This document shows, in pieces, positions 2,620 to 19,603 of a stretch of 64,000 nt of DNA; the first letter of the stretch is position 1, and each line of letters opens with the position of its first letter. Under the pieces are notes generated by a model. The model was not told the DNA's origin and made no database searches. It saw only the letters and a list, made by a program, of their open reading frames with translations. This DNA comes from Phycisphaerae bacterium. Its GTDB lineage: Bacteria > Planctomycetota > Phycisphaerae > FEN-1346. Location of the stretch: positions 5,513 to 69,512 of the forward strand of contig DATKXP010000079.1 in assembly GCA_035529015.1 (NCBI GenBank), read 5' to 3'. The position numbers were made by a program, and so were the translations under genes.

Positions 2620-2841
2620 ATGGCCGATGACGGCCCAGAAATGGCGAAAACGCTGAACCCGGCAGCCCTGACAGTCGCCGATGCCGCCAGGATTCTCACG
2701 GCCGCCGGCGGCGGGGCCGTCACCGCGGAGATGATCCAGGCCGACTTGGACGCCGGCGCGCCCACGAACGCCGACGGGACCATCAACCTGGTGCACTACA
2801 CGGCGTGGCTCGCGAGGGAGGTGACCTCCGGTGAAGGTTGA
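2620..2841 (+). CDS. small DNA-binding protein in small-terminase position
   Basis: 73 aa directly upstream of and overlapping the large terminase; shares an L-x-PA-x-L ... L-x-x-Y-x-AWL motif with the TerL N-terminus. Confidence 0.45.
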   Translation: MADDGPEMAKTLNPAALTVADAARILTAAGGGAVTAEMIQADLDAGAPTNADGTINLVHYTAWLAREVTSGEG

Positions 2842-5095: not shown

Positions 5096-5265
5096 GTGAG
5101 AACGCGACAGAGGAGAAACGCGGGCTGGAATGCCGTCACTGCGGCTGCCGGCACTTCCGCGTCATCTACACCCGCCCCGCCTGGGGCGGGCGGATTATGC
5201 GGCGGCGGGAATGTCGGAACTGCGGAAAGAGAATGACGACGTGGGAGCGGCCCCTCGGCGGATGA
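5092..5265 (+). CDS. small zinc-ribbon protein (57 aa, not in ORF track)
   Basis: Read by eye: GTG 5092 overlaps the TerL stop (GTGA); VSENATEEKRGLECRHCGCRHFRVIYTRPAWGGRIMRRRECRNCGKRMTTWERPLGG with CxxC...CxxC. Confidence 0.45.
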   Translation: MSENATEEKRGLECRHCGCRHFRVIYTRPAWGGRIMRRRECRNCGKRMTTWERPLGG

Positions 5266-5524
5266 TGGGGCCGACTCCGCACGGATTGGGAACTCGGCGG
5301 TTGCCCTATGACGCCAGCCACGGCGGGTCTTATGCCGGTCAGCATGACACTCCGCCCCAAGATGGTGGCAAGGCCAAGGTCTACTTCTCGGCGCCCTCCA
5401 GGCAGATCGCACGTTGGGCGCAGGGCATTCGAGATCTCGCCTGCAACGATGACGCCCCAGCAGTGGGCGCGCTCCGAGTACCGCGTGTGACGGAATCCGC
5501 AGTCCCGTTGAGCAGAAAAAGCAG

Positions 5525-5553
5525 TTGAAACACGCTTAGAACTGTGGCATAAG
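5525..5553 (+). promoter_or_regulatory. candidate sigma70-like promoter for the cargo operon
   Basis: TTGAAA, 17 nt spacer, CATAAG, about 90 nt upstream of the gatA-like ATG; weak -10. Confidence 0.25.
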
Positions 5554-5644
5554 GGATGTCGTGCCCGGTCTGTGCGGAAGTTGGGGCGCCAGTGTGGTGT
5601 TGTGTCTGCGCTCGCGCCGGCTGGGGCCAGAGGATAGGCTCAAC

Positions 5645-7093
5645 ATGGATCTGTCAAAGAGCACAGCTCACCAGCTGAAGTCGCTCATCGCTGGCGGCGA
5701 GACAACTTGTCGTGAGGTCATGCTTTCAGTACTGGAGGAGATCGAGCGCCGAGAGTCTGACGTGCAGGCTTTCATTACCGTTCGGGATCGCGGCGAGTTA
5801 CTTGCGGAAGCGGATGAGGTCGACCGCCGACGCAGCCGCGGCGACGCGATCGGCGCGTTGGCGGGGCTGCCGATCGCCGTTAAAGACAACATCTGCACTC
5901 AAGGAATGGCAACCACATGCGCATCCCGAATGCTGGCAGACTGGGTTCCCCCGTATGACGCAACCGTGGTTCAGCGAATCCAAGCAGCCGATGGCATCAT
6001 ACTGGGGAAGACGAACCTCGACGAGTTTGCCATGGGTTCGAGCACAGAGAACTCGGCAATGAAGACCACGCGGAACCCCCACAACCACGACTACGTGCCC
6101 GGGGGGACAAGTGGGGGGTCGGCGGCCGCTGTGGCCTCTAACGAGTGCATCTTGGCCATTGGCTCAGACACCGGAGGATCCATCAGACAGCCTGCGTCGT
6201 TCTGCGGAGTCGTCGGCATGAAGCCGACCTATGGCAGAGTGTCGAGATATGGCCTCATCGCCTATGCCTCGTCGCTCGACCAGATTGGGCCGATTGCCAA
6301 GGACGTGAGAGATGCCGCCCTCCTTCTCGAGGTGATTGCAGGACACGATCCCATGGACTCGACGAGCCTGGCGGCCGGCGTTCCGGGATACGTCGCGGGC
6401 CTTGGGAGCCAACGAGGGTTCCGGTTTGGCGTTCCCGATGAGTACTTCGGGCCGGGCGTGGACAGACAGGTCCGCAGGGCCGTAGAGGGAGCCATTGACG
6501 CCCTCAAGGAAGACGGCCAGGAAGTGGTACAGATCAGCCTTCCCCACACTGAGTACTCGGTAGCCGCGTACTACATCGCCGCGTGTTCCGAGGCTAGTTC
6601 AAATCTCGCGCGTTATGACGGATGCCAATACGGCTTCCGCGCTGAGGGCATCGGCGATATGATAGGCATGGTCAGCGAGACCAGAGCAGAGGGCTTCGGC
6701 CCGGAGGTCAAACGCCGAATCATGCTCGGAACCTACGCCTTGAGCGCTGGCTACTATGATGCATACTACCTGAAGGCCGCCAGGGTGCGTAGGCTCATCG
6801 CTCAGGACTTCGAGTCCGCATTCAAGACCTGCGACGTCATACTGCACCCTGTTGCCCCAACAGCAGCCTTCAGGATCGGCGAGAAGATCGATGATCCCCT
6901 GGCCATGTACTTGGGTGATATCTTCAGCGTGACGGCCAACCTAGCTGGCCTTCCGGCCACAAGTGTCCCTTGCGGACGCACGAGCGAAGGGCTGCCCGTC
7001 GGCATACAGTTGACAGGAAAAGCCCTCGACGAGGGGACGCTGCTCGCTGCGGCTTATCATCTTGAATGCCTGCTCCGGAGTTCTGCCGCATGA
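5645..7093 (+). CDS. gatA: Glu/Asp-tRNA amidotransferase subunit A paralog (amidase signature family)
   Basis: Near-canonical GatA blocks: AVKDNICTQGMATTCASRML, GKTNLDEFAMGSSTENS, GGTSGGSAAAVA, GSDTGGSIRQPASFCGVVGMKPTYGRVSRYGL; start taken at ATG 5645 (MDLSKS). Confidence 0.85.
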   Translation: MDLSKSTAHQLKSLIAGGETTCREVMLSVLEEIERRESDVQAFITVRDRGELLAEADEVDRRRSRGDAIGALAGLPIAVKDNICTQGMATTCASRMLADWVPPYDATVVQRIQAADGIILGKTNLDEFAMGSSTENSAMKTTRNPHNHDYVPGGTSGGSAAAVASNECILAIGSDTGGSIRQPASFCGVVGMKPTYGRVSRYGLIAYASSLDQIGPIAKDVRDAALLLEVIAGHDPMDSTSLAAGVPGYVAGLGSQRGFRFGVPDEYFGPGVDRQVRRAVEGAIDALKEDGQEVVQISLPHTEYSVAAYYIAACSEASSNLARYDGCQYGFRAEGIGDMIGMVSETRAEGFGPEVKRRIMLGTYALSAGYYDAYYLKAARVRRLIAQDFESAFKTCDVILHPVAPTAAFRIGEKIDDPLAMYLGDIFSVTANLAGLPATSVPCGRTSEGLPVGIQLTGKALDEGTLLAAAYHLECLLRSSAA

Positions 7094-7626
7094 GCGGGGA
7101 TGACATGGACACGATTCCCTGGGAAACAGACGCCACCTACCCCGACTGCCTGGGGAACCATATTCGGCTTTTGCGACGCTCCTTGCCCGACGTGGAGAGT
7201 GCGAAGAGCAAAGAACTGCTCCCCTTCTTCCACGAGACGTCATCGTTCGTACTGGAGTCCTTCGTCCCTGAACGCGACAAGGAGAGGGTACGGGGGAAAC
7301 TCCTAAGGTTAGACCTCGAGCCAAGTGTCGCTCGTGCGTGCATCCTCTCACATAGGCACACAGACGAGTATCTATGGCTGATCCATGCAGTTGCGCGAAC
7401 GCTGCTTACTGTCTGGAGGCTGAACGACCTGCTTGAAGCCGTACAAGTCGAGCTAGAAGGCCGCAGATCGGTTCTCCACATGCAAATGGGGGGGGAGCAT
7501 CTGCTCTGCCTGTTCGATAACCAAGGCCGAGGCGTGGGATGGTGTGAAGAACTGGCAACGGAGGCCCGTGCGTTCAGTGAGAACACCGTATGGCCCCGCG
7601 GCAACGGCCGCGAGCGTGCTCGTTAG
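7090..7626 (+). CDS. hypothetical protein coupled to the gatA paralog
   Basis: ATG 7090 overlaps the gatA stop (ATGA); 178 aa; no motif recognised; does not resemble GatB or GatC. Confidence 0.5.
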   Translation: MSGDDMDTIPWETDATYPDCLGNHIRLLRRSLPDVESAKSKELLPFFHETSSFVLESFVPERDKERVRGKLLRLDLEPSVARACILSHRHTDEYLWLIHAVARTLLTVWRLNDLLEAVQVELEGRRSVLHMQMGGEHLLCLFDNQGRGVGWCEELATEARAFSENTVWPRGNGRERAR

Positions 7627-7726
7627 GCCCAGCACGCGAGAATACAAGAGTGGGTGAGGGGTGCCTATTCGCCCCCAAGGCGACAGAACGGCACTGGGAC
7701 AACCCACGGGATCGGGACAGAGGGCA

Positions 7727-8263
7727 ATGTCAAGAAGCTTATTAGACTATGCAATTCTGCTTGGCTCTTACGTGGGCATTCCGGTAGGGGCCCTCGTGTT
7801 TGAGATCGGGCTAAAGGCACTGATGGCTTTTGCGGCGGATTGGTCAGACCGGACGAGAGGCGAGCGCGGGCGTACGGCGTTGCTCACGGGCGGCGATTCC
7901 CCTTCGGGTTACTCGTTCTGCGTGCTGGGACTTGCCACAGGCTTGCTCATAGCGCTGAACAGAGACCGATTGGCTGATTCCTCGACCTGTCTCCGGGACT
8001 GGCCTGTGCTTAGCCTGATTGCTTCCACGGTTCTCTCTTCACTGTCTCTGGGGGTGGCGAGCGTGCTGTGTGTTCGCATTCGATCATCCGAAATGTATGA
8101 GAGAAAGGTTTTGCTAAGTAGGCTGGTGATTGCTCCGAAACCAGGCTGGGATCGCCTGAGAGGAAGGCTCGAGCGCGCGCGAGCGAGGAAGTTGCGAGCT
8201 GTTGTTGCCGCTCTTGGGGTCTTCTCGCTGTTTGTGGCTTCCGCGGTGTTCTTTGGCATCTAG
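7727..8263 (+). CDS. multi-pass membrane protein
   Basis: Four hydrophobic helices (e.g. YAILLGSYVGIPVGALVFEIGL, FCVLGLATGLLIAL, VVAALGVFSLFVASAVFF); start uncertain (7661 or 7727). Confidence 0.5.
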   Translation: MSRSLLDYAILLGSYVGIPVGALVFEIGLKALMAFAADWSDRTRGERGRTALLTGGDSPSGYSFCVLGLATGLLIALNRDRLADSSTCLRDWPVLSLIASTVLSSLSLGVASVLCVRIRSSEMYERKVLLSRLVIAPKPGWDRLRGRLERARARKLRAVVAALGVFSLFVASAVFFGI

Positions 8264-8275
8264 GGGGGGCCGACT

Positions 8276-8689
8276 GTGGAGTTGCTCTTGTTCCTATTGG
8301 CAGGCCTGATTGCCTCGTTTGCGGCGGGGCTCATCGCGGTCTACGTGGTTGAGGCTCGCGTTGCTCCCGCGTTCGCGCGGTGGCTCCTGCGCACGCCAAG
8401 CGGGAGACGGCTGCGGGTAGCCTATCTGCTCGGCTTGTTGCGCCGCTTCGGGAGGAAGCTGCGCGGGCTCCGAGGCAGAGAGACGCCTGAAAGGGCTGAC
8501 GGTCGTGCTCATACGGCGGGCGGCATGCGCACTATGATGATCATCGTCACATTGCGCCCCGCAACCGATTGCGGTAAGCGCTGTGGGGTGGTCGGCCAGC
8601 GATTCGCTTCGGCTGCCTTCCGTGAAGCAGGTTGGCGTTCGCGGGGAGACTGGGTGCTTGTCAAGCATGGGCGAGGGCCCGTATTATGA
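8276..8689 (+). CDS. possible small single-pass membrane protein
   Basis: N-terminal helix LLLFLLAGLIASFAAGLIAVYVV then Arg-rich low-complexity tail; the true stop may be effectively earlier; weak. Confidence 0.3.
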   Translation: MELLLFLLAGLIASFAAGLIAVYVVEARVAPAFARWLLRTPSGRRLRVAYLLGLLRRFGRKLRGLRGRETPERADGRAHTAGGMRTMMIIVTLRPATDCGKRCGVVGQRFASAAFREAGWRSRGDWVLVKHGRGPVL

Positions 8690-8792
8690 GGGAGCTCGGT
8701 TGCAGGCGCAGATCATCACTCCGCGTGAACGCGGGGCGCGAGGCTCCCGAGGGCCTGCACCGGAGTCTGTCAGTATCTAAAAGGGGTAACTC

Positions 8793-10469
8793 ATGAGAAC
8801 GGTAGCGTTTTACAGTTTTAAGGGAGGAACGGGCAAATCGCTCGCGGCTGCCAACATGGCCGTCTGCCTCTCGCGCCTCGGCAAGCACTGTGCGGTTGTC
8901 GATCTCGATTTTGACTGCCCGACCCTTCATCTGAAATTCGAGAATCTGTGCGACCATGCGCCAGGCGCAGGCGGGGTCGTGGACTTTGTCCGATCCCACA
9001 CCAAGGGAGACCCCTGGACAGGCTGGAACTCGGTGAAGTTGGTAAGCAGCCGGAAGGCGCAGAAGCCGCTGTCTGACTTCACCTACCCCGTGCCGCAGCG
9101 AGGCGCCGATCTTGGCACGATTCACCTTATCGCGGCCGGTGACTACATTCACCAAGAGGAATACTTGGCAAGTGTTGCCAGTCCTGTCTGGACTATGCTC
9201 TTCGCCAGTGACGTAGGGCTCGGGGTGGGGGCCTTCACCGCGAAGCAGGCCTCCCAGTGCGAGAGATTTCTGGAAAGCTTCAAGGAACAGGTGTCGGACC
9301 TCAGCCCTGAACCCGAGTATTTTCTCCTCGACCTCCGCAGCGGTTTTGGGCCACTGAGTCGGACAACCATCAGGCTCTGGGCGGATGTCGTCGCCGTTTT
9401 CCTGGCAAGCAACGTTGAGAGCGTCAGCATTCTTAGCGGGATGCTGAGAGAGATGCAGGCTTGGTTTGACGGACCACTGACTTATGAAGCGGTTGTTCCG
9501 GTGCTGACCCGTACACCCATGACCCTCGAGACCGGGCGGGGAGTCGAGGTGAAGCAGACTATTCTTTCGATGCTTTCCTTGCAAGAGGACGAACTATACT
9601 ATCTGCATTCAGACCGCGACGTGGAGATGTTCGAGCATTTGCGGCTCGGGCTGTCGCATATGCCGCACAACTGCCTCCTTTCTCACGAGTATGTCCGGCT
9701 GTTCGCTCGACTCATGCTTCCCGCGAAGGAGTATGCAGGGCAGGATGTAACGGAACAAGTGGACGAAATGGCTAGGGCGATCAAATCAAGTATCAAGCTC
9801 GGCCAGTTTGTCCAGTGGAAGGACCGTGTGTTTAGGCTCGAGACGGAGCGCGGCGCTCTTATCAACCCTAGTGACAATGCACGCAACGTTTCATTCAAGG
9901 TGGAGACCATAAAGCTCCTACTGCACAGTTTGCGGGAGGAGTTGCTGACCCCGGCGGAGGCAGAACAGGCTCAGAGCGGGCACGATGGCACGGAGTCAGG
10001 GGCGGCGCCAACCGACGAGCCCACTGGGTTCGAGCAGGCCCTGCGCGTGGCAGGAGCGGAGTGTGGCAAGAGATTCGGCTCTGTGTTGATAAACGACGTC
10101 TGGCGTCTGAAAGGGCCAGCCAAGGAGAATCATGAGGACTGGGTGAGGAAATGGTCCGACTTCGACTCGGACGTTGGTTTCGGGCGGTTCGCACCCAAGT
10201 CAGGGAGTTTGCGCGTTGAGGGAGGACGACTGACCTCCTGCAAAATCGTTCTGCGAGAGAGTTTCCTCGCGCCTGCTCACGATTCCGAGTACGGGGACCA
10301 TGCTTTGTGCAGTTTCATCAGCGGATACATCGAAGGCGTTCTATCACACATACTCGGAGGCACCTATACGGTCATCCACGAAATTCTCGGATACGAGGAC
10401 GAGCAGTCGAGAAGCGAGAGCTGCGTGTTCAAGGTTGCGAAGAAACCAACAGGCACGACGGAGACGTAG
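8793..10469 (+). CDS. ParA/MinD-like P-loop ATPase fused to a C-terminal V4R-like ligand-binding domain
   Basis: N-terminus MRTVAFYSFKGGTGKSLAAANMAVCLSRLGKHCAVVDLDFD (deviant Walker A); C-terminus HALCSFISGYIEGVLSHILGG...ESCVFKV resembles 4-vinyl-reductase (V4R) domains. Confidence 0.65.
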   Translation: MRTVAFYSFKGGTGKSLAAANMAVCLSRLGKHCAVVDLDFDCPTLHLKFENLCDHAPGAGGVVDFVRSHTKGDPWTGWNSVKLVSSRKAQKPLSDFTYPVPQRGADLGTIHLIAAGDYIHQEEYLASVASPVWTMLFASDVGLGVGAFTAKQASQCERFLESFKEQVSDLSPEPEYFLLDLRSGFGPLSRTTIRLWADVVAVFLASNVESVSILSGMLREMQAWFDGPLTYEAVVPVLTRTPMTLETGRGVEVKQTILSMLSLQEDELYYLHSDRDVEMFEHLRLGLSHMPHNCLLSHEYVRLFARLMLPAKEYAGQDVTEQVDEMARAIKSSIKLGQFVQWKDRVFRLETERGALINPSDNARNVSFKVETIKLLLHSLREELLTPAEAEQAQSGHDGTESGAAPTDEPTGFEQALRVAGAECGKRFGSVLINDVWRLKGPAKENHEDWVRKWSDFDSDVGFGRFAPKSGSLRVEGGRLTSCKIVLRESFLAPAHDSEYGDHALCSFISGYIEGVLSHILGGTYTVIHEILGYEDEQSRSESCVFKVAKKPTGTTET

Positions 10470-10514
10470 CCTCGCGCTTGTGCATGGGCCGTACGTCCGA
10501 TGGAGGGATAGGCT

Positions 10515-11588
10515 GTGGCGAGCAAGTCGCGGGTCTGCCTGATATATACAGGCGGAACGATCGGGATGCAGAGGCTGTCGGACGGCACGCTCACCCCCCC
10601 TGACGACCCCAGAGATTTCCTTCGCGTCGCGCCCGAACTGCCCAAGATCACGGAATTCGACTTCGTACCTCTGATGAACAAGGACAGCACGAATGTGCAC
10701 CCCGGGGATTGGACCGAGATGGCGAAGGCCGTCTATGAGCGGCGCCTGGCCGGGTACGATGGCTTTGTCATCGCGCACGGCACGGACACGATGCATTTCT
10801 CGGCGTCGGCCCTGGCGTTCGCCCTCGGCCCGAACCTCGACTTCCCCGTCGTCTTCACGGGGGCCCAGACGATCCCCGAGGTCAGCCACGGGGACGCCCG
10901 GGTCAACCTCCTGCGGGCCTGCAAGGTCGCCACGACGGACCTCGCGGAGGTGGTGATCTCCTTCGGCGACTACATCTTCCGCGGCTGCCGTGCCCAGAAG
11001 AAGGACGAGCGACGGTTCGACGCGTTCGAGTCGCCCGCCTTCTTCCCCCTCGGTTATATCACGGAGGAGATCGTCATCCAGCCCCTGGCGAAGCGCCGCC
11101 ATCGCCAGGACAACATCGAGTTGAGGGCGGACTTCGTGCAGGGCGTGCTCCAGGTCTCGCTGATCCCCGGCTTGGAACCGGAGCTTCTCGTGCCGTCCCT
11201 GGAATCGCCTTTATGCAAGGGCGTCATGCTCCAGTCCTTTGGGGCGGGGAACGTCCCCCACGAAAAACCGTACGCCTTCACAGAGTTTGTCCGTCAGGCC
11301 AGAGCCTTGAACAAGCCGGTAACCATCGCGAGTCAGTTCCCGGCTAATGCCACGCTCCACACGGCATACGAGCCAGGCCGCGCAGCCGTGCAGGCGGGGG
11401 CCATCCCCACGGGGAATATGACCAGTTCCTGCGCTGCTGCCAAGTTCCGGTGGGTGTTGGCTCAGGTAGAGCGTGAGATCCGCGAGGGCGCTGTTAGCGA
11501 ATCCCAAAGACTTGATCGGGTTGCCAAGATGATGCAGACCGTGTACGTAGGAGAAATGGACGTCCCGACTGAACGGATCCGACCGTAA
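10515..11588 (+). CDS. type I L-asparaginase / GatD-like amidohydrolase
   Basis: VCLIYTGGTIGM catalytic Thr motif, AHGTDTM second Thr motif, FTGAQ; 357 aa. Confidence 0.8.
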   Translation: MASKSRVCLIYTGGTIGMQRLSDGTLTPPDDPRDFLRVAPELPKITEFDFVPLMNKDSTNVHPGDWTEMAKAVYERRLAGYDGFVIAHGTDTMHFSASALAFALGPNLDFPVVFTGAQTIPEVSHGDARVNLLRACKVATTDLAEVVISFGDYIFRGCRAQKKDERRFDAFESPAFFPLGYITEEIVIQPLAKRRHRQDNIELRADFVQGVLQVSLIPGLEPELLVPSLESPLCKGVMLQSFGAGNVPHEKPYAFTEFVRQARALNKPVTIASQFPANATLHTAYEPGRAAVQAGAIPTGNMTSSCAAAKFRWVLAQVEREIREGAVSESQRLDRVAKMMQTVYVGEMDVPTERIRP

Positions 11589-11607
11589 TCTCAAAGGAGA
11601 GGCGGCA

Positions 11608-13119
11608 ATGGGAAATCTCAAGCCAGAGAACGCCGTGGCTAGAGTCTATATCCTGTACACCGGCGGCACTATCGGGATGGTACCTGAGGACCCGGACAAC
11701 CCAGCCAGCCCGCTCGTTCCGGCGAATGAGGACGAACTCAAGATGTACGTGCCGGGCTTGGGGGAGAAGGAGGGCATTCACTGGGAAATCGGGCGACTGG
11801 TGGACGAGAAGGGCGACGACGTTCCGCCCCTCGATTCGTCCGACGTTAACTCGGAGCATTGGATTTACATGGCAACGTCCATCGAGAAAGTCTACGACGA
11901 GTTTGACGGCTTCGTCATTCTCCACGGCACTGACACCATGGCGTACACGGCTTCAGGCCTTTCCTTCCTCCTAGCCAACCTGGCAAAACCGGTTGTCATT
12001 ACCGGTTCACAGCTGCCGATCTGCCAGACGCGGACCGACGCCGTTCAGAACTTCGTGAATGCCCTTTACATCGCCGGCTACAAAGCCACAGGCTTCCCTC
12101 TCGTGCCGGAAGTCACGATCTGTTTCGGCGACGTCCTGCTTCGGGGGAACCGCACGCGCAAGGTGAGCACCGCCTCATGGCAGGGCTTCGACACGCCCAA
12201 CTTCCCAAAACTGGGTACCATCGGCGAGCACATCCGGATCAACACCAACCTTGTCCGTCCACCAGCCGACAATGAGAAGGCCCCGTTTTTCGCTCACAAG
12301 ACCCTAGTTTCCGACGTAATGGACATGGGCCTGTTCCCGGGCCTTAGGGCCACTCAATTGGAAAGGCTCCTCGGCATGGAGGGCCTGAAGGGCATTGTCC
12401 TCAGGACCTTCGGTGCGGGAAATGCACCGAGTTACGACGATTTCCTCGATGTGATCGGGAAGGCCATCAGGGGCGAAGGTCAGGGGGGGAGACTTATCCT
12501 CAACGTCACGCAGTGCGTCGAGGGCATGGTTGAGATGGGCCTCTATGCAGCCAGCAGCGGCCTGCTTGAGCGTGGAGTCATCAGCGGCTTGGACATGACG
12601 CCCGAGGCAGCGTTGGCGAAGCTGATGTGGATACTTGCCACGGAGTCGGATCCTGAAGAGATCCAGAAGCAGCTCCAGATAAACCAACGCGGGGAACAGA
12701 GCCAAAACCTGTTTGACGTTCGGTATGGCGGGGCCGGCAAGAAGTCCGAACCGCAGGCAATCGTCAAGGTCTCCGCCCGGCCTTCGGGCCAGTTTGACAA
12801 GACCGCTCTCCACCGCGCCGTCCTGCGCATTTCGGGCGTGGGTTTCGCAGACACGGCAGAGGGCGAAGATGTAGGGCTGCGCGTGTTCATCAACCTGCCC
12901 GGAGCAACTGCCGACACGCCCACAGCCGACCCGCACTTCGCGGCGGCTTTCGAGGAGAAGTACAAGGGGCCGAAGGGCACGAGGTTTCTGCGAGAGGTGA
13001 CAGCTGCCGTCAACAGGGTGGTCGAGTCCGGACGGCCGATCAACATCACACTTGTGCCGATGGGAGGAAAGAAGATCTGGTACGATGGCCTGTACCTGGC
13101 GCTATTCTGCAAGGCGTGA
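11608..13119 (+). CDS. asparaginase/GatD-like amidohydrolase with ~140 aa unknown C-terminal extension
   Basis: ILYTGGTIGM, LHGTDTMAYT, ITGSQLP motifs; 503 aa; C-terminal domain unrecognised. Confidence 0.75.
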   Translation: MGNLKPENAVARVYILYTGGTIGMVPEDPDNPASPLVPANEDELKMYVPGLGEKEGIHWEIGRLVDEKGDDVPPLDSSDVNSEHWIYMATSIEKVYDEFDGFVILHGTDTMAYTASGLSFLLANLAKPVVITGSQLPICQTRTDAVQNFVNALYIAGYKATGFPLVPEVTICFGDVLLRGNRTRKVSTASWQGFDTPNFPKLGTIGEHIRINTNLVRPPADNEKAPFFAHKTLVSDVMDMGLFPGLRATQLERLLGMEGLKGIVLRTFGAGNAPSYDDFLDVIGKAIRGEGQGGRLILNVTQCVEGMVEMGLYAASSGLLERGVISGLDMTPEAALAKLMWILATESDPEEIQKQLQINQRGEQSQNLFDVRYGGAGKKSEPQAIVKVSARPSGQFDKTALHRAVLRISGVGFADTAEGEDVGLRVFINLPGATADTPTADPHFAAAFEEKYKGPKGTRFLREVTAAVNRVVESGRPINITLVPMGGKKIWYDGLYLALFCKA

Positions 13120-13156
13120 ACCCGGCCCTGGCCCTCGGCTCAATAAGGCTTCTTCG

Positions 13157-13181
13157 GCGGCAGTTTCTGGCCGCGTTTCTT
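13157..13181 (+). terminator. weak hairpin plus T-rich tract after the second asparaginase gene
   Basis: GCGGC (13157-13161) pairs with GCCGC (13170-13174), 8-nt loop, then GTTTCTT; only a 5 bp stem. Confidence 0.25.
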
Positions 13182-13799
13182 GACAGATTTCCCTACACCT
13201 CGATCGGCCTTGGCCCGACAGTCCAGAGGCATGGCGGTCCCGGAAACGGGGCCCAGTCCGGGATCCAGGGAGCGTATACGCAAGATGGGGGAGAGAATGA
13301 CGTGCGAAGCGAGGGGTTCGTCACTGCCTGTTGGCCTCCGTGAGGAGGGACCCCATGCCGGGCCGCCCATTTGCGGTGCCAGCGTCTAGATGCGGAAGAA
13401 TCTGTGTCGAGTTGCAGTTTCCCGTCCCATTTCGCACTTCTCGTGTCGGTACAGGGCAGATGATGCAACCACTTTCGCCAACGTGTGATGTGGCGCGGCT
13501 TGAGGCGGAACTCAGCCTCGTGCCGCACGTGGACCGGGAGGAGGCCGTGCAGGAGGTGTGGCTCGCCCACCTGTCCGGGCGAAGACCCTATAAGCAGGTT
13601 TGCCATCCGCCCCCGTCTGGCTGGGCCAATCAGCAATCCGGGCCGCCCGTCGCTCTTTGGCCCAAAGCCGATGCCATAAAGCCCTAATTCCTTGGCGCCC
13701 ACTTGACAGGCTGTTACAATTCAACAGCAATCCCTGGTCCACCTGCGTTTGTGCAAAGGCGGGGATCGGCGACGCGCCGAAAGAGTGGAGGATGGCGGC

Positions 13800-14537
13800 A
13801 TGTACGGAGCGAGAATCGATGTTCCTGTAAGGGAGTTCGCGCACATCTTTTTGCGATGTCCTGATGTGGCCTTGAGAGACATTGAGGATATTGTGCTCAC
13901 AATCCGTCGCTTAGACCACGCCGTTGAGGCTGGTGATTGGGCAGCGACGCCTTGCTTGTGGAGACGACTCCGCTTTCTGACGGCACCTCTTGAGGAGAGC
14001 TGGCGCTCGGTCAGCGCGGCGGAAGTGGAGGAGTTGCAGATCTACGAACGGCATGAGAAGGACCTTCGGCAAGGCAAAGGTGTCATAGAGGGGCGCCTTA
14101 GTCGCATTCTTTACTTAAAGTCCGCCGACATTAACATCTATCGTCGGAGCTTGGCCTGCCGTGCAGGCCAGAAGCTTTGCCCTGACGTCTACAAAGCGCT
14201 CCGCGCGACGGATACGTTCCGGGAACTGTGTGATGATGTTGCAGACGTTGAGGAAGACTTGGTCAGGCCGAACTTCAACTTCCTTGTTCTCGCGCAGCGA
14301 TTGAGCGTGGATCCGGTAAGCGTGGTATGCGCAGAGTTCGACGCCTTGCTCGGCGTAGCTCTGGCTACACTGCGAAGACTGTGCGCTGGTGGGGCTCTGG
14401 ATGCTGAGTCTTGTGCCGTGCTGGAGGCGGCGATGGCTGATGAGGAAGAAAGGTTCAGGGCATTGATCCCTGAGAAGCTCGGCTGGCTGGCCCTTGCCGG
14501 TGGCGGGAGGACGGTGGCCTCGGTGGGGGCAGCGTAA
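13800..14537 (+). CDS. hypothetical all-helical protein
   Basis: SD GGAGGA 7 nt before ATG 13800; acidic LCDDVADVEEDL segment; no firm family assignment. Confidence 0.5.
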   Translation: MYGARIDVPVREFAHIFLRCPDVALRDIEDIVLTIRRLDHAVEAGDWAATPCLWRRLRFLTAPLEESWRSVSAAEVEELQIYERHEKDLRQGKGVIEGRLSRILYLKSADINIYRRSLACRAGQKLCPDVYKALRATDTFRELCDDVADVEEDLVRPNFNFLVLAQRLSVDPVSVVCAEFDALLGVALATLRRLCAGGALDAESCAVLEAAMADEEERFRALIPEKLGWLALAGGGRTVASVGAA

Positions 14538-14541
14538 CAGT

Positions 14542-15450
14542 ATGGACCGGCAGCGTTTGCTTTCGAGAAGGGCTGTGCTGTTTCCGACAGATACGTCTTT
14601 CGAAGGACGTAGCCGACTTGCAGTTGCTGTCAGGTCGCGCGGTTGCGCACATGCGCGCTCGTTTGGACCGTGCATTTACTGTGCTTGCCTAAACGATCCT
14701 CTTTGTTGCCAGAGTCCGGACGTTGCGATAAGGGACTTCGCCGCGACGATTCAGGAGTACGCTGGAGAGCAGATAGATGTAGTAAGTCTGCTGTGTCCAG
14801 GTTCCTTTCTCGACGAGCAGGACCTGCCGCGGCACACCGCCGAAGAGATGGTGCGGAGCGCGATCGACTCTTTGCGTGTCGAGACGGTCACGGTGGAAAG
14901 CCGACCGACGTTTGTGTCGGACGCGTCTGTGGAGTGGCTCCGGGGGGCCGCCGCTGGTGCACAGGTCGAGATCGCGATCGGTTTCGATACTGTCTCGGAT
15001 TCGGTCCGTAACGGCGTTATCGGCAAGAAGATCTCAAGGTACGAGCTGCGTCGAGCAGTCCAGTGTGCGAAGAGGCGCGGCACTAGACCTGTGCCCTTCG
15101 TAGTTGCTCAACCGCCCGGCGTGACACGGGCTCAGGCAGTGGCCGAAGCCGTGAGCACCGTGATCTTCCTTCGGGACTTGGGGGTTACCGAGTGCTGGAT
15201 GGAGCCGGTTCTTGTGGTTGCAGGCAGTAGGCTACAGGAGCTCTGGGAGGCTGGGGAATACCGATTGCCGGAACCCAGTATTGTCGACGAGATCGAGGCA
15301 GCGTGCTCTGAGGTGATGGGGGTCCGTCGGGGTGGTGACATCGCGTCACCGAGGGTTGTTGCGCCGAGTGCCGTTGCAGAGAGGAGGACCCAACAGCATT
15401 GCCAGAGGACGGTGGCTGGTTGTTTCTGTGGTGTCAGCAAGAGCAAGTAG
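14542..15450 (+). CDS. putative radical SAM protein with non-canonical Cx8Cx2C spacing
   Basis: RGCAHARSFGPCIYCAC near the N-terminus; overall size and pattern recall the TIGR01210/RaSEA-type branch, from memory only. Confidence 0.5.
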   Translation: MDRQRLLSRRAVLFPTDTSFEGRSRLAVAVRSRGCAHARSFGPCIYCACLNDPLCCQSPDVAIRDFAATIQEYAGEQIDVVSLLCPGSFLDEQDLPRHTAEEMVRSAIDSLRVETVTVESRPTFVSDASVEWLRGAAAGAQVEIAIGFDTVSDSVRNGVIGKKISRYELRRAVQCAKRRGTRPVPFVVAQPPGVTRAQAVAEAVSTVIFLRDLGVTECWMEPVLVVAGSRLQELWEAGEYRLPEPSIVDEIEAACSEVMGVRRGGDIASPRVVAPSAVAERRTQQHCQRTVAGCFCGVSKSK

Positions 15451-15505
15451 TCTGAGCGCGGTGTTCTGAAGCTACAACTGAGTACGGGATCCGGAGCGTA
15501 CCGAC

Positions 15506-16798
15506 ATGCATATCTGCTTTGTCTCGCCTCGCCCCTCTTCGTCGGACGGCATCTTTGGCGTTGAGCCACTCCGTATACCTCCCTTGGGTCTCCTTATTCT
15601 TGCGTCCCTTACTCCGGACACGGTTAAGGTCGACGTATTCGATGAGCATCTGGAGGAGCTTCCAGATCTCAGCACTTATGACCTGGTAGGTATGACGTGT
15701 TCCACTGCTGCATCGACGAGGGCTTACGAGATTGCCGATCACTGCAAGAACCTTGGGGTTCGGGTAGCTCTCGGAGGATGCCATCCCTCCTTGCTTCCCG
15801 AAGAGGCACTTGGGCATGCGGACTTCGTCTTCGTGGGGCCGGCCGAGAGAACGTGGCCGCAGTTCATCTCAGAGTTCGCCGCAGATTCTGCTAGACGACT
15901 GTATAGCGACACAAAGCTTGGTAGGCTTTTGAATCTGCCCTTACCGGATTTCTCCAAGGTCGCAAGACTCGCGCCGCGATATGGCACTATGAATGTAGCG
16001 CTCTCAAGCCTGGGCTGCAGTCACCGGTGTGCTTTCTGTACCGTCTACGCCTCCTCTGGGATAGGCTTCAGGCCGAGACCGATTGAGGATGTTGTTCGAG
16101 ACCTTAAGCCCATGAGCGGGCAGTTTGTGTGGTTTGTTGATGACAACCTCTATTGCAATCGGGAGTATGCGCTAAGGCTCTTCCGGGCTATCGAGCCCCT
16201 CCAGCTCACATGGCTGAACCAAGCGAGTATTTCAATCGGCCATGATCTGGACACGCTTGTAGCCGCGAAAAGGAGCGGCTGCATCTCTCTGCTGATAGGA
16301 CTGGAGTCACTTTCGGCGCGGTCCCTGAGAGCAAGCCGCAAGACCTGCAATGTGCCGGACGAATACAGATCCTGTGTTGATGCCATACGGGGGGAGGGAA
16401 TAGGTGTTGAGGCGGCTTTCATATTTGGGTTTGACGAAGAGGACGAGGGTGTCTTCGAAACGACGCTAGGGTTCTGCTACGATGCCGACGTTGAGCTGGC
16501 ACACTTCTCTATACTCACTCCTTTTCCGGGAACGAGCTTCTACGCGCGATGCCTTCGCGAAGAAAGACTTCTCAAACAAGAGTGGCGCTACTTTGATGGG
16601 TTTCACGTGGTGTTCAAGCCTGCTCTCATGTCCGCGGAGAGGCTTTTGCGAGGCTTCCGTGAGGCGTACCAGGAGTTCTATCGGCCGGAGGCAATAGCCC
16701 GTCGCCGCCGCCGCGCGGTCCAGCCGGCGTGGTATTTCTCGGCCATAAACAGGGACTACGGTGTGCTAGGCAGGAGTGCGGATTCAGGTGGAGGGTGA
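15506..16798 (+). CDS. B12-binding-domain radical SAM protein
   Basis: N-terminal Rossmann-like MHICFVSP...LLILASL...YDLVGMTC then LGCSHRCAFC (CxxxCxxC); 430 aa. Confidence 0.75.
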   Translation: MHICFVSPRPSSSDGIFGVEPLRIPPLGLLILASLTPDTVKVDVFDEHLEELPDLSTYDLVGMTCSTAASTRAYEIADHCKNLGVRVALGGCHPSLLPEEALGHADFVFVGPAERTWPQFISEFAADSARRLYSDTKLGRLLNLPLPDFSKVARLAPRYGTMNVALSSLGCSHRCAFCTVYASSGIGFRPRPIEDVVRDLKPMSGQFVWFVDDNLYCNREYALRLFRAIEPLQLTWLNQASISIGHDLDTLVAAKRSGCISLLIGLESLSARSLRASRKTCNVPDEYRSCVDAIRGEGIGVEAAFIFGFDEEDEGVFETTLGFCYDADVELAHFSILTPFPGTSFYARCLREERLLKQEWRYFDGFHVVFKPALMSAERLLRGFREAYQEFYRPEAIARRRRRAVQPAWYFSAINRDYGVLGRSADSGGG

Positions 16799-16803
16799 TC
16801 GAC

Positions 16804-17496
16804 ATGTGTGAGGCGGCAGGTGCGGAAGCACAGCCACTCCAAGACTACCGCGAGGAAGTGGAGACTCATTTCTTGGCCTGCACGGCGTTCGTTTTCTTGG
16901 TGAGCGCCGGTCACGGTCTGTCCCAGGTAGTGACGGGGTGGTTTGCCGAGAGCCCCTGGCTCCTCGGCTATGCCGCGTGGGTCGCTGCGTCGTTCATACT
17001 CTTCGGCTGTCATTGTAAGAAGTCCCGAGGGCCACACGGGGAATGGCTAAAGGCTCAGCAGGAGAAGCCTTGGCTCGTCATCTTGGTCGACCTGTTCATG
17101 ACGGGTGCGTTTGTGTTCTTGGCGGGGGGATGCAGAAGCGGCATGATGTTCCTTTTCTGCTGGTGCTTTCTCTTCGATACTGTCCTGCTTCTCCCCGTCC
17201 ACGGTGATAAGCCTCGCACGGTGCTGGCGATGGTTCTGTACGGTAGCCTGGCGCTCTTGGTTCTTGTGGCAGCGACGGTTCCGTATGAGGTCTGGAGCTT
17301 ACATCCCATGAATGTTGGGATGACGCCAGCAGAAGCCAGATTGAAACTGGGCGACAATGCTTGGCTGGTATGGCTCCAGTACGCGCTGGTGCTGTTGCTC
17401 ATTGTCGGGCTGTGCTACGCTTGCCTAGGGCTTAGACGTATTGCCCGGAGGCACCTGGCTGTTGCTGGCTTGGGAGGTGGCGCAGCGCGGAAATAG
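16804..17496 (+). CDS. multi-pass membrane protein
   Basis: Five to six hydrophobic helices; Cys/Phe-rich (MMFLFCWCFLFDTVLLL); start taken at ATG 16804. Confidence 0.55.
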   Translation: MCEAAGAEAQPLQDYREEVETHFLACTAFVFLVSAGHGLSQVVTGWFAESPWLLGYAAWVAASFILFGCHCKKSRGPHGEWLKAQQEKPWLVILVDLFMTGAFVFLAGGCRSGMMFLFCWCFLFDTVLLLPVHGDKPRTVLAMVLYGSLALLVLVAATVPYEVWSLHPMNVGMTPAEARLKLGDNAWLVWLQYALVLLLIVGLCYACLGLRRIARRHLAVAGLGGGAARK

Positions 17497-17507
17497 GTGC
17501 GGATGCC

Positions 17508-18851
17508 ATGTGGTATGTTATCGCCTACCTCGTAGCTGTCCTCGTGATTGGCGTGGCCGCAGCGCGGCGCCAGTCTGCCGAGGGCTTCATGATGGCGGAC
17601 CGCCAATTGGGTGCGTTTGCGGTAGGGAGTTCAGTCTCGGCGGGCTTCTTTGATGCCTTTGTGCTGGCGGTGTACGCTGGTTACGTCTATCAATACGGCT
17701 TGTCAGCGCTGTGGCTCTTTGTCGGTGTCGCGGTCGGACTGGGTGTCTTTGCGCTGATGGCCAGGCCTATAAAGGAAGCTTCCGATGCCGGGCGCTTCCA
17801 CACGATGGCCGACTACTTCTTCGCGCGGTTCCCACGCGACGCGAAGCCGGGTTATGCCGTCGCCGGTTTGCTGGTGGTCTTCTTTCTTGCCCTACTCCTT
17901 GTGCAGTTCATATTTGGCAGCCAAGTGCTCGCCTTTCTCACAGGTTGGAGCTACACGTCGTGCGTGCTGATCGTGGGGATTGTCGTGATGCTGTACATGG
18001 TTATCGGGGGGTTCCGGGCAAGCGTTCGCACGGACGTGTTTCAGTGGTTGCTGATCGTGCTGCTCGCGAGCATCGTGGCTCTTGTGGTGCGGAGAGATCT
18101 CGCACCATCCTGGGCTGCGGCGCGTCCCTTGGGCATCGGCATCGGTAAGAGTGCTGCCTTCCTTGTGATTGGGACGCTGAATACGATCGTGGCAGCGGAT
18201 CTCTGGCAGCGCGCTTATGCTGCGAAGTCCGTTCAGAGTCTGCGACGGGGACTGTTTCTTGCTGCTCTCATGCTCCCTCTCGCCGGCGCAGTGATTGGCA
18301 TCATAGCCCTGGCTACACGGCAGCAGTTTCCGGGCTTGGATGATCCTACTCAGGCTCTCCTGTATGGATTCGGACGGGCCTTGGGAGAAGGGTGGCGCGG
18401 TCTGGGGTTTGTCGTTTTGTTTGCCGCGATCATGTCCAGTGCAGACACGATGCTCTTCGTGATTGGCTCTAGCGTTGTCAAGGACTTCGCGGAAAGAAGA
18501 CGCCGCTGGACGGATGCAAGGAGGGTACGCCTTGTGCGCTACGCTTTGGGCGTAGCCGGTTTGCTGGGGGTGATTGTGGCCATTGCCGTACAGGACATAC
18601 TCACTATCGCTCTCAGCATAGCAGGGCTAGGTATTGGCCTGTCGCCGGCTGTTGTAGCCGTTCGGTTTTTCGATCCGCGAAGCATCTCCGTGTTCGTCAG
18701 CATCATGCTGGGTGCGGCCGCAGTTGGCGCTCTTCTTTTGAGTGGATACGTGATGCCCGAGACCTCCCTCGTATCACTGCCGGTAGCCCTGGTTGCGCTG
18801 CTCATAACTGAACTTCTCGCACGCATACGAGGGCGCGGGAAGAGTGATTGA
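17508..18851 (+). CDS. sodium:solute symporter (SSS) family transporter
   Basis: 447 aa, about 12 TM; N-terminal FMMADRQLG and MVIGGFRASVRTDVFQW blocks typical of the SSF family. Confidence 0.75.
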   Translation: MWYVIAYLVAVLVIGVAAARRQSAEGFMMADRQLGAFAVGSSVSAGFFDAFVLAVYAGYVYQYGLSALWLFVGVAVGLGVFALMARPIKEASDAGRFHTMADYFFARFPRDAKPGYAVAGLLVVFFLALLLVQFIFGSQVLAFLTGWSYTSCVLIVGIVVMLYMVIGGFRASVRTDVFQWLLIVLLASIVALVVRRDLAPSWAAARPLGIGIGKSAAFLVIGTLNTIVAADLWQRAYAAKSVQSLRRGLFLAALMLPLAGAVIGIIALATRQQFPGLDDPTQALLYGFGRALGEGWRGLGFVVLFAAIMSSADTMLFVIGSSVVKDFAERRRRWTDARRVRLVRYALGVAGLLGVIVAIAVQDILTIALSIAGLGIGLSPAVVAVRFFDPRSISVFVSIMLGAAAVGALLLSGYVMPETSLVSLPVALVALLITELLARIRGRGKSD

Positions 18852-19270
18852 CGACTGGAATCTGCTATCGTTTTCTGAGCGGTCGCTATTGGCGGCGATT
18901 CGGCTGCGGCCGGTGACCTGCTGAGTTCAGTGGGAACGCGTCACGCTAGACTTGGGACCTCAGTCGAGGGCATGCCGACGAGCAGGAAATCTCCCCAGGA
19001 GGTGGCGAGCGGTACGAGGAGCACGGGGCGAGACCCTCGTGTGGAAGGCCCGGCGGATGCGCGTTGCAGCAGGAAGTGCCACCGCAAGGGGCTGGATTGC
19101 ATCGCATAACGTACCATCAGGGCACGGACCGGGCGCCCCCCTGTGGGAAGCTCATATCTGGTCGCCCGTTCCCTTAGCTGGAATGCCCCCAAGGTCCACA
19201 TCCGTAACCATTTCACCTCACCACCCGAAAGTCTCTTCCGACCGCCCTGTGCCAACCGTATCATAGGATA

Positions 19271-19393
19271 GACAACCAGACCAGGCGACGATCCGGAGGC
19301 TGATCCCCACCGGGTTGCCACCGAAAGAATCAAGGCCGTTCGGGGCCGAACACCCGAGCGGCCTTCTCTTTTGGTTCGCCCGGCCTGGTTGTC
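19271..19393. repeat. long imperfect inverted repeat enclosing a terminator hairpin
   Basis: GACAACCAGACCAGGCG (19271-19287) pairs 15/17 with CGCCCGGCCTGGTTGTC (19377-19393); checked base by base. Confidence 0.55.
19332..19374 (+). terminator. intrinsic-terminator-like hairpin
   Basis: AAGGCCGTTCGGG (19332-19344) pairs with CCCGAGCGGCCTT (19353-19365): 13 bp with one G-U, 8-nt loop, followed by CTCTTTTGG. Confidence 0.55.
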
Positions 19394-19409
19394 GGACGGG
19401 AGGTAAGAG

Positions 19410-19601
19410 GTGGCCGACGACCTGGAACAGACGATTCGCGAGAACGCCCAGGGCCCTGCCGAGGCCACGGGCGATTCGGGTTCGATGCGCCAGCACGACC
19501 TGAAGGACCAGGTCGAGGCCGACCGTTACCTCGCCTCCAAGGACGCGGTGCGGAAGGGCCGGGGCTTTCGTCTGACGAAGCTCGTACCGCCGGGAGCATA
19601 G
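19410..19601 (+). CDS. small protein preceding the portal gene (gpW-position)
   Basis: SD GGGAGGTAAGAGG upstream; 63 aa; stop 3 nt before the portal start. Confidence 0.45.
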   Translation: MADDLEQTIRENAQGPAEATGDSGSMRQHDLKDQVEADRYLASKDAVRKGRGFRLTKLVPPGA

Positions 19602-19603
19602 GC

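Follow-up and report, generated by a model that had tools for sequence, protein, structure and literature searches.

Cargo hotspots of temperate phages are productive places for finding new immune systems. Among the immune effectors already described are those that deplete a metabolite, such as NAD+-degrading TIR and SIR2, the ATP-degrading PNP of CBASS and Detocs, dCTP deaminase and dGTPase. In lambdoid phages, the moron of Hendrix and Juhala is said to be an extra transcription unit lying between genes that are adjacent in relatives. The P2/P4-type prophage and satellite hotspots of antiviral systems (Rousset et al. 2022, PMC9122126) exemplify the known kind, phage hotspots of accessory and defence genes, to which the site described here belongs. 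This site is the terminase–portal junction of a phage on a stretch of 64,000 nt of Phycisphaerae DNA (contig DATKXP010000079.1), the whole of which is called the window below. An insert lies between the gene of the large terminase TerL with its zinc-ribbon open reading frame (ORF) and the gpW-position ORF with the portal gene (Table 1). It extends over about 5266–19268, that is, about 14.0 kb, its borders being taken from the DNA homology to relatives, which is lost at 5258–5265 and regained at about 19269. The reading favoured here, at a probability of about 0.45, is that of a composite accessory island in a cargo hotspot specific to this phage family, in which the first module would be a conflict system with amidohydrolase effectors.

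First of all, the hotspot is seen in the relatives of the phage. A scan of IMG/VR with TerL left 80 loci (TerL 67–74% identical in amino acids; loci are designated by L numbers below), of which 75 could be scored for the length of the junction. From the zinc-ribbon ORF (or TerL) to the gpW-position ORF, the interval has a median of 160 nt in these 75 relatives: 57 of them have merely 79–578 nt there, and 18 carry inserts of 0.7–4.4 kb at exactly the same place, each of lower GC than its own flanks. Because the junction is short in most relatives and is filled with differing lower-GC inserts in those 18, cargo recurs at the terminase–portal junction throughout the phage family, which makes the site a hotspot, and much of its cargo is defence. 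That is to say, the same core genes flank the site, its content goes from empty to varied, and recognised anti-phage systems are present. Among the 35 ORFs scanned in the relatives' inserts, AbiEi/AbiEii pairs were found in four inserts, and the others include REase-ARP (2), PD-(D/E)XK, HNH, PLD, MazG_C, AAA_14/DUF4143, and HTH with an M78 peptidase. Moreover, the hotspot of L079 holds a complete Tiamat TmtA-like gene of 1375 amino acids (5404–9531, minus strand; PADLOC E 8e-73) with Sacsin/HATPase and NOV_C domains. The insert of the window is the largest load at the site, about three times any of the 18 inserts, and has no gene in common with them. None of its cargo genes occurs in any of the 80 relatives. 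An earlier, sequence-only reading of this DNA had placed the block between genes that are neighbours in other phages, which the 57 short junctions bear out; the recurrent hotspot with its known defence genes had been missed.

Both flanks belong to one phage lineage, because 74–75 of the 80 relatives show one collinear order of TerL, zinc-ribbon ORF, gpW-position ORF and portal, with similar divergence; the case of two unrelated remnants, which had been named as a way in which the idea of an insertion could fail, does not apply. The zinc-ribbon ORF overlaps the stop codon of TerL, is kept in 63 of the 80 relatives and is always the left edge of the hotspot. Downstream of the portal follow a protease-capsid fusion, a cement protein and a tape measure, and the matches of TerL, portal and protease-capsid in relatives are 60–75% identical in amino acids. 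The matches of TerL in GenBank phages are at most 32% identical over about half of the protein; therefore, these phages supply no useful reference. Upstream of the terminase lies a fusion of ParB_N with an N6/N4 DNA methyltransferase (window 43–714; 442 amino acids in the full contig, L081 594–1922), which is present in 48 of the 80 relatives.

The block 5266–19268 is of foreign origin, with a composition unlike that of the backbone. In the sliding profile, GC is 0.57–0.63 over 5–19 kb vs 0.66–0.67 on either side (cargo overall 0.59–0.60), and GC at third codon positions is 0.61–0.82 in the cargo genes vs 0.83–0.87 in TerL, the gpW-position ORF and the portal, and 0.79 in the zinc-ribbon ORF of 58 codons. 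Tetranucleotide correlations are 0.84–0.86 between backbone segments and 0.50–0.75 between cargo and backbone. The AT-richness noticed in the letters alone is found again in both GC measures, and none of the three profiles is flat. The cargo itself (5645–18851) consists of 12–14 ORFs, all on the plus strand, with gaps of −4 to 112 nt between them. As the sequence-only reading had it, TerL and the zinc-ribbon ORF end at 5265, the small ORF and portal start at 19410, and the genes between them are co-directional. Its left border of the block, 5266, holds, but the right one, 19410, does not, as homology resumes at about 19269. Likewise, the spacers of 0.3–0.5 kb that it described at both edges exist (non-coding stretches of 379 nt on the left and 558 nt on the right), but the final 140 nt of the right one are phage backbone and not insert. 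For the remaining spacer sequence, homology to relatives was not found on the right (18852–19268), nor in any relative on the left (5266–5644).

A scan of 4800–19800 for repeats gave short chance matches only, with no att-like, terminal, direct or inverted repeats, and no ORF of the cargo matches an integrase or transposase family in Pfam or NCBIfam; the latter point agrees with the sequence-only reading. With neither a recombinase or transposase match nor terminal repeats, the insert does not qualify as an integrative mobile element. As cargo of the hotspot, it is neither a transposon insertion nor two joined remnants. Probably, it came in when related phages recombined at the conserved flanks, rather than through mobility genes of its own.

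The same architecture is found in a second assembly (L082; 99.7% identity, gapless), two Logan contigs are 100% identical to the window across the cargo, and the arrangement persists in at least three assemblies. Because the second assembly and the two identical Logan contigs agree in this way, the block is real DNA and no chimera. Between the assemblies, 50 single-nucleotide polymorphisms (SNPs) are confined to about 750 nt of TerL (3106–3859; 43 synonymous, 7 nonsynonymous), and none lies across 3860–20439. This pattern suggests recombination among co-occurring phage variants, with the cargo segment carried intact; the patch in TerL may also be read as a strain mixture. Since the cargo is identical between the assemblies, SNPs give no information on selection there.

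In common with the P2/P4-type hotspots (PMC9122126), the site is flanked by core genes, its content varies between related phages, has lower GC and includes known defence systems, and there is no dedicated integrase. The differences are that the phage of the window is of another family (lambda-gpA terminase, lambda-type portal), that the site is inside the packaging/head module, from TerL/zinc-ribbon to gpW/portal, and that the insert is 14 kb long and matches no catalogued system.

As for transcription, a hairpin at 19332–19365 stands just upstream of the gpW-position ORF, with a stem of 13 bp, a T-run and a free energy of −27 kcal/mol; it is strong and terminator-like. Similar hairpins of the form AAGGCC...GGCCTTT (−23 to −29 kcal/mol) occur in the insert-bearing L004, L040, L061 and L077, and also in L034. 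Their distance to the gpW-position ORF downstream is 45–130 nt, and most of the relatives that have them carry inserts; relatives with an empty site have a weaker, different conserved element, CCGGGTA...ATAGGCG. Judged by its sequence, the hairpin of the window looks like a putative terminator insulating the transcription of the cargo from the late genes. Inside the island, a terminator-like site (13157–13174) comes just after the long, second asparaginase, and promoter-like sites are located at the two largest internal gaps (8658–8687 and 13692–13720, the latter with a TG extension); in the left spacer 5266–5644, no consensus sigma-70 promoter was found. The earlier idea that the block is transcribed with the late operon gains no support from these signals. 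Like the lambdoid morons, the insert lies between genes that are neighbours in relatives, has a distinct composition and is followed by a strong intrinsic terminator-like hairpin. Unlike the classical morons of one or a few genes, it has 12–14 ORFs in two modules, and of the moron's own promoter and terminator, the terminator-like hairpin is strong and the promoter is weakly predicted, at the internal sites 8658 and 13692 only.

The island is composite. Module A (5645–13119) recurs elsewhere while the genes of module B (13800–18851) are absent from all other loci, and the terminator-like site at 13157 together with the promoter-like site at 13692 is consistent with the split. The view of a single operon or system of thirteen genes has therefore become doubtful. 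The ORFs at 13116–13343 and 13355–13687, between the modules, are doubtful as genes: they have no homologues and show high GC at second codon positions.

Module A is an instance of a rare conserved module built on a V4R-domain protein, here fused to a ParA/MinD-type domain, and a long asparaginase. V4R domains are small-molecule binding domains. The ATPase has the deviant Walker A motif KGGTGKS with its signature lysine, conserved across the family, and its AlphaFold2 (AF2) model, with a predicted local distance difference test score (pLDDT) of 80.5, finds FlhG, MinD, Soj and ParA as the top Foldseek matches (E 6e-9 to 1e-6). By the deviant Walker A and the MinD-like fold, it belongs to the ParA/MinD type, and a ParB- or MinE-type partner was not identifiable. 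Its C-terminal region of about 215 residues is V4R/Bet3-like, with conserved C424, C506, H529 and C544; in the Foldseek search of the whole model, the matches were chiefly those of the ParA domain, and this region obtained none of its own.

Both asparaginases score just below the NCBIfam equivalog cutoffs. The marks of type I (AnsA-like) enzymes are present, namely the Thr of TGGTIGM, the Thr-Asp pair of HGTDT, the Lys and a full-length similarity to AnsA. In the long asparaginase, the catalytic motifs are invariant in 24 orthologues; in the short one, TGGTIGM and HGTDT are intact, and orthologues of 60–69% identity occur in L095, L189 and L191. In addition, the C-terminal profile of the long asparaginase matches the C-terminal domain of the polyphenol oxidase 7xio (E 5.6e-4). 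In polyphenol oxidases, the C-terminal domain shields the active site, and by analogy the match hints at latency or regulation of the long asparaginase. The GatA-like amidase, the first gene of the module, has the catalytic-triad lysine and the GGTSGG and GSDTGGSIR motifs, and its orthologues of 55–68% identity stand beside the ATPase/asparaginase pair in L088, L092, L095, L182 and L185.

The pair of V4R protein and long asparaginase was followed through about 35 distinct loci, which came from scans of genomes and metagenomes. In every one of them with enough flanking sequence, the long asparaginase (38–65% identity) stands directly beside a V4R-type protein, and this is so in several phyla. 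The pairing holds even without the ParA domain, the neighbours then being PAD_porph-like, PNP_UDP_1, AAA_16 or TPR proteins. One such sister architecture (L098 8070–13123; L099 6504–11791; L100 1095–5040), found in Hyphomicrobiales, Kapaibacterium and Bacteroidota metagenome-assembled genomes (MAGs), consists of a PAD_porph-like protein, a V4R/TRAPP-like protein of about 400 amino acids, a phosphorylase-superfamily protein (PNP_UDP_1) and the long asparaginase. In another variant, seen in L176 (1542–5852) and L177, the module is duplicated, with two tandem ParA-V4R ATPase paralogues (31% and 36% identical to the window protein) around a short asparaginase. As for the remaining genes of module A, GatA recurs in 5 loci, the short asparaginase in 3–6 and the 178-aa protein in 1, and L095 keeps the order GatA ... 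ATPase, short asparaginase, long asparaginase.

The distribution of the pair is very sparse and patchy. About 26 full-length homologues of the ATPase were found in 5.8 billion proteins, and of 1.84 billion cluster representatives, 264 belong to the family of its C-terminal domain. Three full-length members (two of them Verrucomicrobiales MAGs) and six members with the C-terminal domain only, in five further taxa, are present in 185,579 species genomes. Among 72.5k plasmids, neither partner of the pair was found, and a search of 50.7k GenBank phages with the long asparaginase gave none with its C-terminal extension.

What stands next to the pair is often of a conflict type: AbiE in L088, TIR in L091, HEPN/NTase and PIN/VapB in L092, PIN, DUF4062 and a Schlafen-AlbA ATPase in L090, and the TrwC relaxase and an SNF2 helicase in L085; PNP_UDP_1 is present in 3 loci, and AAA_16/TPR proteins and AAA_15/21/23 ATPases occur as well. 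Across loci, the enzymes joining the pair comprise an amidase-signature amidase, a CN-hydrolase, a second asparaginase and a PAD/agmatine-deiminase-like protein, each of which hydrolyses C–N bonds of amide or guanidino groups. A hydropathy scan of the neighbours gave no conserved membrane partner, and no other locus of the pair has any module B gene, either of the two small membrane proteins or any phage gene.

The sequence-only reading had left the choice between a large moron or auxiliary metabolic gene (AMG) block and an insertion into a domesticated cluster. Because the junction is a hotspot with known defence genes in the relatives, the most likely reading shifts from metabolic AMG to defence or conflict cargo. 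Taken by itself, the proposal that module A is a previously undescribed conflict (anti-phage) system, with the ATPase/V4R protein as switch or sensor and amidohydrolases as effectors, is made tentatively, at somewhat less than even chances, from its sequence and company. The ATPase/V4R protein would act as a nucleotide-dependent switch or a small-molecule sensor over the amidohydrolases, and the long asparaginase, the short asparaginase and the GatA-like amidase would be the effectors. In the simplest version, the cellular pools of Asn and Gln would be destroyed, or a target would be deamidated; translation would then stall, and the infecting phage could not replicate. Module B would be cargo in its own right, perhaps for the synthesis or import of a modified small molecule, and the terminator would insulate the island from the downstream late genes. 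The arrangement would resemble the metabolite-depleting effectors in that a sensor or switch controls an enzyme destroying an essential metabolite, with PNP_UDP_1 beside the pair in 3 loci. It would differ from them in its substrates, the amide amino acids, and in literature searches neither a type I asparaginase nor an amidase-signature amidase was reported as a defence effector. A broader version, which is doubtful, would make this a new class of immunity: a ParA/MinD-V4R ATPase, or a V4R protein alone, would sense infection and unleash latent asparaginase/amidase enzymes, which strip Asn/Gln or deamidate charged tRNA or proteins and abort the phage by translational starvation; variants would use arginine/agmatine-deiminase-like and PNP nucleosidase enzymes, and phages would spread the system through the packaging-module hotspot.

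Several points weigh against a defence role. PADLOC-DB v2, with which ten cargo proteins were scanned (the short asparaginase, both radical S-adenosylmethionine (SAM) enzymes and the symporter being left out), gave solely a weak PDC-M28B match in the ParA domain (E 8e-9 over 45 residues), and literature searches found no report that connects phage defence with asparaginases, V4R domains or this ATPase family. No sequence feature shows anti-phage activity; the defence role is inferred from sequence context, and it is purely conjectural that the amidohydrolases are effectors and whether they act on free Asn/Gln, aminoacyl-tRNA or protein. The V4R assignment comes from weak Pfam matches (E 0.0057; TRAPP E 6.9e-6 in the L098 relative), and the promoter-like sites number 3 vs 3.5 expected from shuffled sequence. 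Some inserts of the relatives are not defence genes but, for example, a carbonic-anhydrase-like gene, a metallo-beta-lactamase and DUF1643. Furthermore, sigma-70-like proteins and amino-acid-type biosynthetic genes (PALP, TauD, ATP-grasp, GHMP kinase) flank the pair in several loci, and such neighbours agree no less well with a role in regulation or biosynthesis.

The transporter and the three amide hydrolases could simply be nitrogen catabolism. The corresponding reading, a metabolic moron or AMG block, is unlikely. It would serve nitrogen scavenging for the lysogen: the symporter would import an amide nutrient (Asn, Gln or a derivative), the asparaginases and the GatA-like amidase would release ammonia, and the ATPase/V4R protein would be a ligand-sensing regulator. 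Three intact ammonia-releasing hydrolases and a sodium:solute symporter do stand in one co-directional block, the V4R domain suits the binding of a small molecule, and the non-defence inserts as well as the regulators and amino-acid metabolism genes beside the pair agree with it. Yet elsewhere the pair is never found together with the transporter or any other part of module B, so that no conserved pathway of transport plus hydrolysis exists; the rarity and patchiness of the pair are unlike those of useful catabolic operons; its neighbours are often toxin-antitoxin, TIR, AbiE or PNP genes; the relatives use the same insertion site for AbiE, Tiamat and nucleases; and the two radical SAM enzymes would have no role.

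Table 1. Features of the window around the terminase–portal junction (TM, transmembrane segments; aa, amino acids).
Feature	Coordinates	Strand	Remarks
Large terminase TerL, lambda gpA type	2831–5095	+	PF20454 GpA_nuclease, E 8.6e-28; left conserved flank
NrdR-type zinc-ribbon ORF, 57 aa, backbone gene	5092–5265	+	PF22811, E 2.9e-11; stop codon is the left insert border
Left non-coding spacer of insert	5266–5644	none	379 nt, GC 0.63; 15-nt palindrome 5425–5444
GatA-like amidase-signature amidase, 482 aa	5645–7093	+	PF01425 E 3e-154; TIGR00132 gatA 612 bits vs cutoff 481
178-aa protein, no family assignment	7090–7626	+	Translationally coupled to GatA
Two small predicted membrane proteins, 200 aa (3 TM) and 137 aa (1 TM)	7661–8689	+	Hydropathy scan; weak codon-position GC pattern
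ParA/MinD-type ATPase with V4R/Bet3-like C-terminal domain, 558 aa	8793–10469	+	CbiA/ParA Pfam matches, NF047398
Short type I asparaginase / GatD-like amidohydrolase, 357 aa	10515–11588	+	PF00710, PF17763; asnASE_I 219 bits, below cutoff 260
Long type I asparaginase, 503 aa	11608–13119	+	PDB AnsA matches E 2e-70; extra C-terminal domain of about 135 aa
Junction between modules	13120–13799	+	Two doubtful ORFs (75 aa, 13116–13343; 110 aa, 13355–13687); terminator-like and promoter-like sites
All-helical orphan protein, 245 aa, first module B gene	13800–14537	+	Single-sequence AF2 model helical, low confidence
Radical SAM enzyme, distant archaeal RaSEA relative	14575–15450	+	TIGR01210 100 bits vs cutoff 212
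B12-binding radical SAM enzyme, 430 aa	15506–16798	+	PF02310, PF04055; best NCBIfam HpnJ 89 bits, far under cutoff
Predicted 5-TM membrane protein, orphan, 230 aa	16804–17496	+	Hydropathy scan
Sodium:solute symporter family transporter, 447 aa, 12 TM, last cargo gene	17508–18851	+	PF00474 E 6e-23; TIGR00813 107 bits, under cutoff
Right non-coding spacer of insert	18852–19268	none	GC 0.62
Conserved phage intergenic region, right hotspot border	19269–19409	+	About 70% DNA identity with L061 and L004 from 19269 on
gpW-position ORF, 63 aa	19410–19601	+	In 75/80 relatives, always downstream of TerL; right conserved flank
Lambda-family portal	19604–21064	+	PF05136, E 7.6e-61; in 74/80 relatives, always downstream of TerL

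The smaller proteins of the cargo (178, 200, 137, 75, 110, 245 and 230 amino acids) gave nothing in permissive-E Pfam, NCBIfam, PADLOC and PDB sequence searches. In a jackhmmer search against all ORFs of 30 related loci, the sole homologue of the 178-aa protein is the ORF after GatA in L092 (37% identity, E 1e-30), and no link to the sigma-70-like proteins of other loci was obtained. Homologues of the 200-aa and 137-aa membrane proteins are absent from the other ATPase/asparaginase loci searched. The 245-aa protein has no match in Pfam, NCBIfam or PDB, and its AF2 model (pLDDT 51) is too poor for a fold search; its sequence may contain DxxED motifs of the phytoene/squalene-synthase kind.

In module B, the combination of genes is unique to the window among the loci compared. 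The sole database homologues of its first radical SAM enzyme (26–29% identity) include archaeal RaSEA genes beside ArcS, and there is a weak PDB match to queuine lyase. The homologues of the B12-binding radical SAM enzyme, at about 40% identity, are stand-alone genes in unrelated contexts without a conserved operon.

Three described systems come close to single genes of the cargo. As in GatCAB and GatDE, the first cargo gene is above the NCBI GatA equivalog cutoff and the asparaginases are of the GatD superfamily; however, no GatB or GatC family match exists among the neighbouring ORFs, the asparaginases reach 191 and 148 bits for gatD_arch vs a cutoff of 324, and there is no GatE. Unlike in GatDE, moreover, the GatD N-terminal domain is lacking from the asparaginases of the window, and their partner is the ParA/MinD-V4R ATPase. 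The first radical SAM enzyme resembles ArcS-RaSEA in its nearest homologues, but it stays at less than half of the family cutoff, and the ArcS/TGT partner was not found in the window: a tblastn search with two archaeal ArcS proteins, which is an insensitive test, was negative. Because the defining partners are absent or the scores are under the cutoffs, the cargo, as far as its sequences tell, does not belong to GatCAB, GatDE, ArcS-RaSEA or any of the systems in PADLOC. The earlier impression of a gene set matching no described system is thereby upheld, with the PDC-M28B match as the only hit and no paper found.

The same genes can be read as a biosynthetic cluster for a modified small molecule or nucleobase, which is improbable. 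GatA and the asparaginases would be glutaminase subunits that supply the ammonia for ATP-dependent or radical SAM steps, the product would be tailored by the RaSEA-like and B12 radical SAM enzymes, and the membrane protein and symporter would move precursor or product; candidates are a 7-deazaguanine-type modification and an antiviral or antibiotic metabolite. GatA- and GatD-type enzymes are known as ammonia-generating amidotransferase subunits, the RaSEA and queuine lyase matches of the first radical SAM enzyme point in the same direction, and PLP-dependent, ATP-grasp, kinase or oxygenase genes lie beside the pair in four other loci. On the other hand, neither the Gat partners (GatB, GatC, GatE) nor ArcS, TGT/DpdA or QueC/D/E-like genes were detected near the block, and the ATPase has the deviant Walker A and MinD-like fold of ParA/MinD instead of the BioD/CobQ/CTP-synthase ligase architecture. 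Modules A and B co-occur nowhere else, and the closest relatives of the B12 enzyme stand alone.

A second island of lower GC (window 35542–56000, GC 0.59, about 20 kb) directly follows the tail genes. SspABCD-like phosphorothioation genes (Aminotran_5, DUF4007, a 1118-aa ORF and PAPS_reduct) stand first, and after them come a ResIII/Helicase_C protein, a HATPase_c_3 protein and an 877-aa SMC/SbcC-like ATPase. The tetranucleotide signature of the island is closer to the 5–19 kb cargo (r 0.74–0.86) than that of the phage backbone is. In L259, the closest relative in the tail genes, a PAPS_reduct-like ORF (13394–13816) comes after the last tail gene; because the island follows the tail genes and this ORF has the matching place, the right end of the phage may be another cargo hotspot. 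From about 56 kb, GC is back to 0.64–0.69. The sole RNA gene found in an Rfam scan of the whole window is a tRNA-Arg (anticodon CCT; 60133–60209, minus strand), which is a possible prophage attachment site.

The two islands bring in a further reading, also of low probability, in which the prophage is defective or domesticated: insert and second island would exceed the packaging capacity, the structural genes would be decaying or repurposed, and the cargo would be chromosomal island DNA that landed there. The unmatched size of the insert among the 18 relatives and the second island speak for it, and, since long contigs of relatives are mostly 25–45 kb, backbone plus 14 kb plus 20 kb may exceed the capacity of the capsid. 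Against it, the ORFs of TerL, zinc-ribbon, gpW position, portal, protease-capsid, cement and tape measure are all full length, the TerL differences between assemblies are mostly synonymous, suggesting purifying selection, and the same architecture appears in at least three assemblies. This reading would leave the role of the cargo unexplained, and it is compatible with the hotspot rather than exclusive of it. Last, it is highly improbable that the assembly is chimeric or that foreign DNA joins the remnants of two unrelated phages. In favour of this, the window is metagenomic, breaks of Logan contigs fall near both borders (4968; 19362–19364) and one assembly has the SNP-dense TerL patch, but independent assemblies span both junctions identically, the flanking genes keep their collinearity in the relatives, and not one SNP separates the assemblies over the island.

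For the phage itself, an insert of 14 kb in the packaging module raises the question of capsid capacity and prophage viability. If the island were metabolic or biosynthetic, it would still be an unusually large phage-borne pathway with two radical SAM enzymes. The position of the hotspot is unusual: it lies inside the terminase–portal junction of a widespread environmental phage family, and of the 75 scored relatives, about one in four has cargo at this place. To our knowledge, the pair of a V4R-domain protein, often ParA-fused, and a long asparaginase is described in no database or paper. Asparaginases are well-studied enzymes, and because of this the idea of depletion is directly testable. 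If the pair is a defence system, the depletion or deamidation of amino-acid amides would join the depletion of NAD+, ATP and dNTP as an immune strategy.

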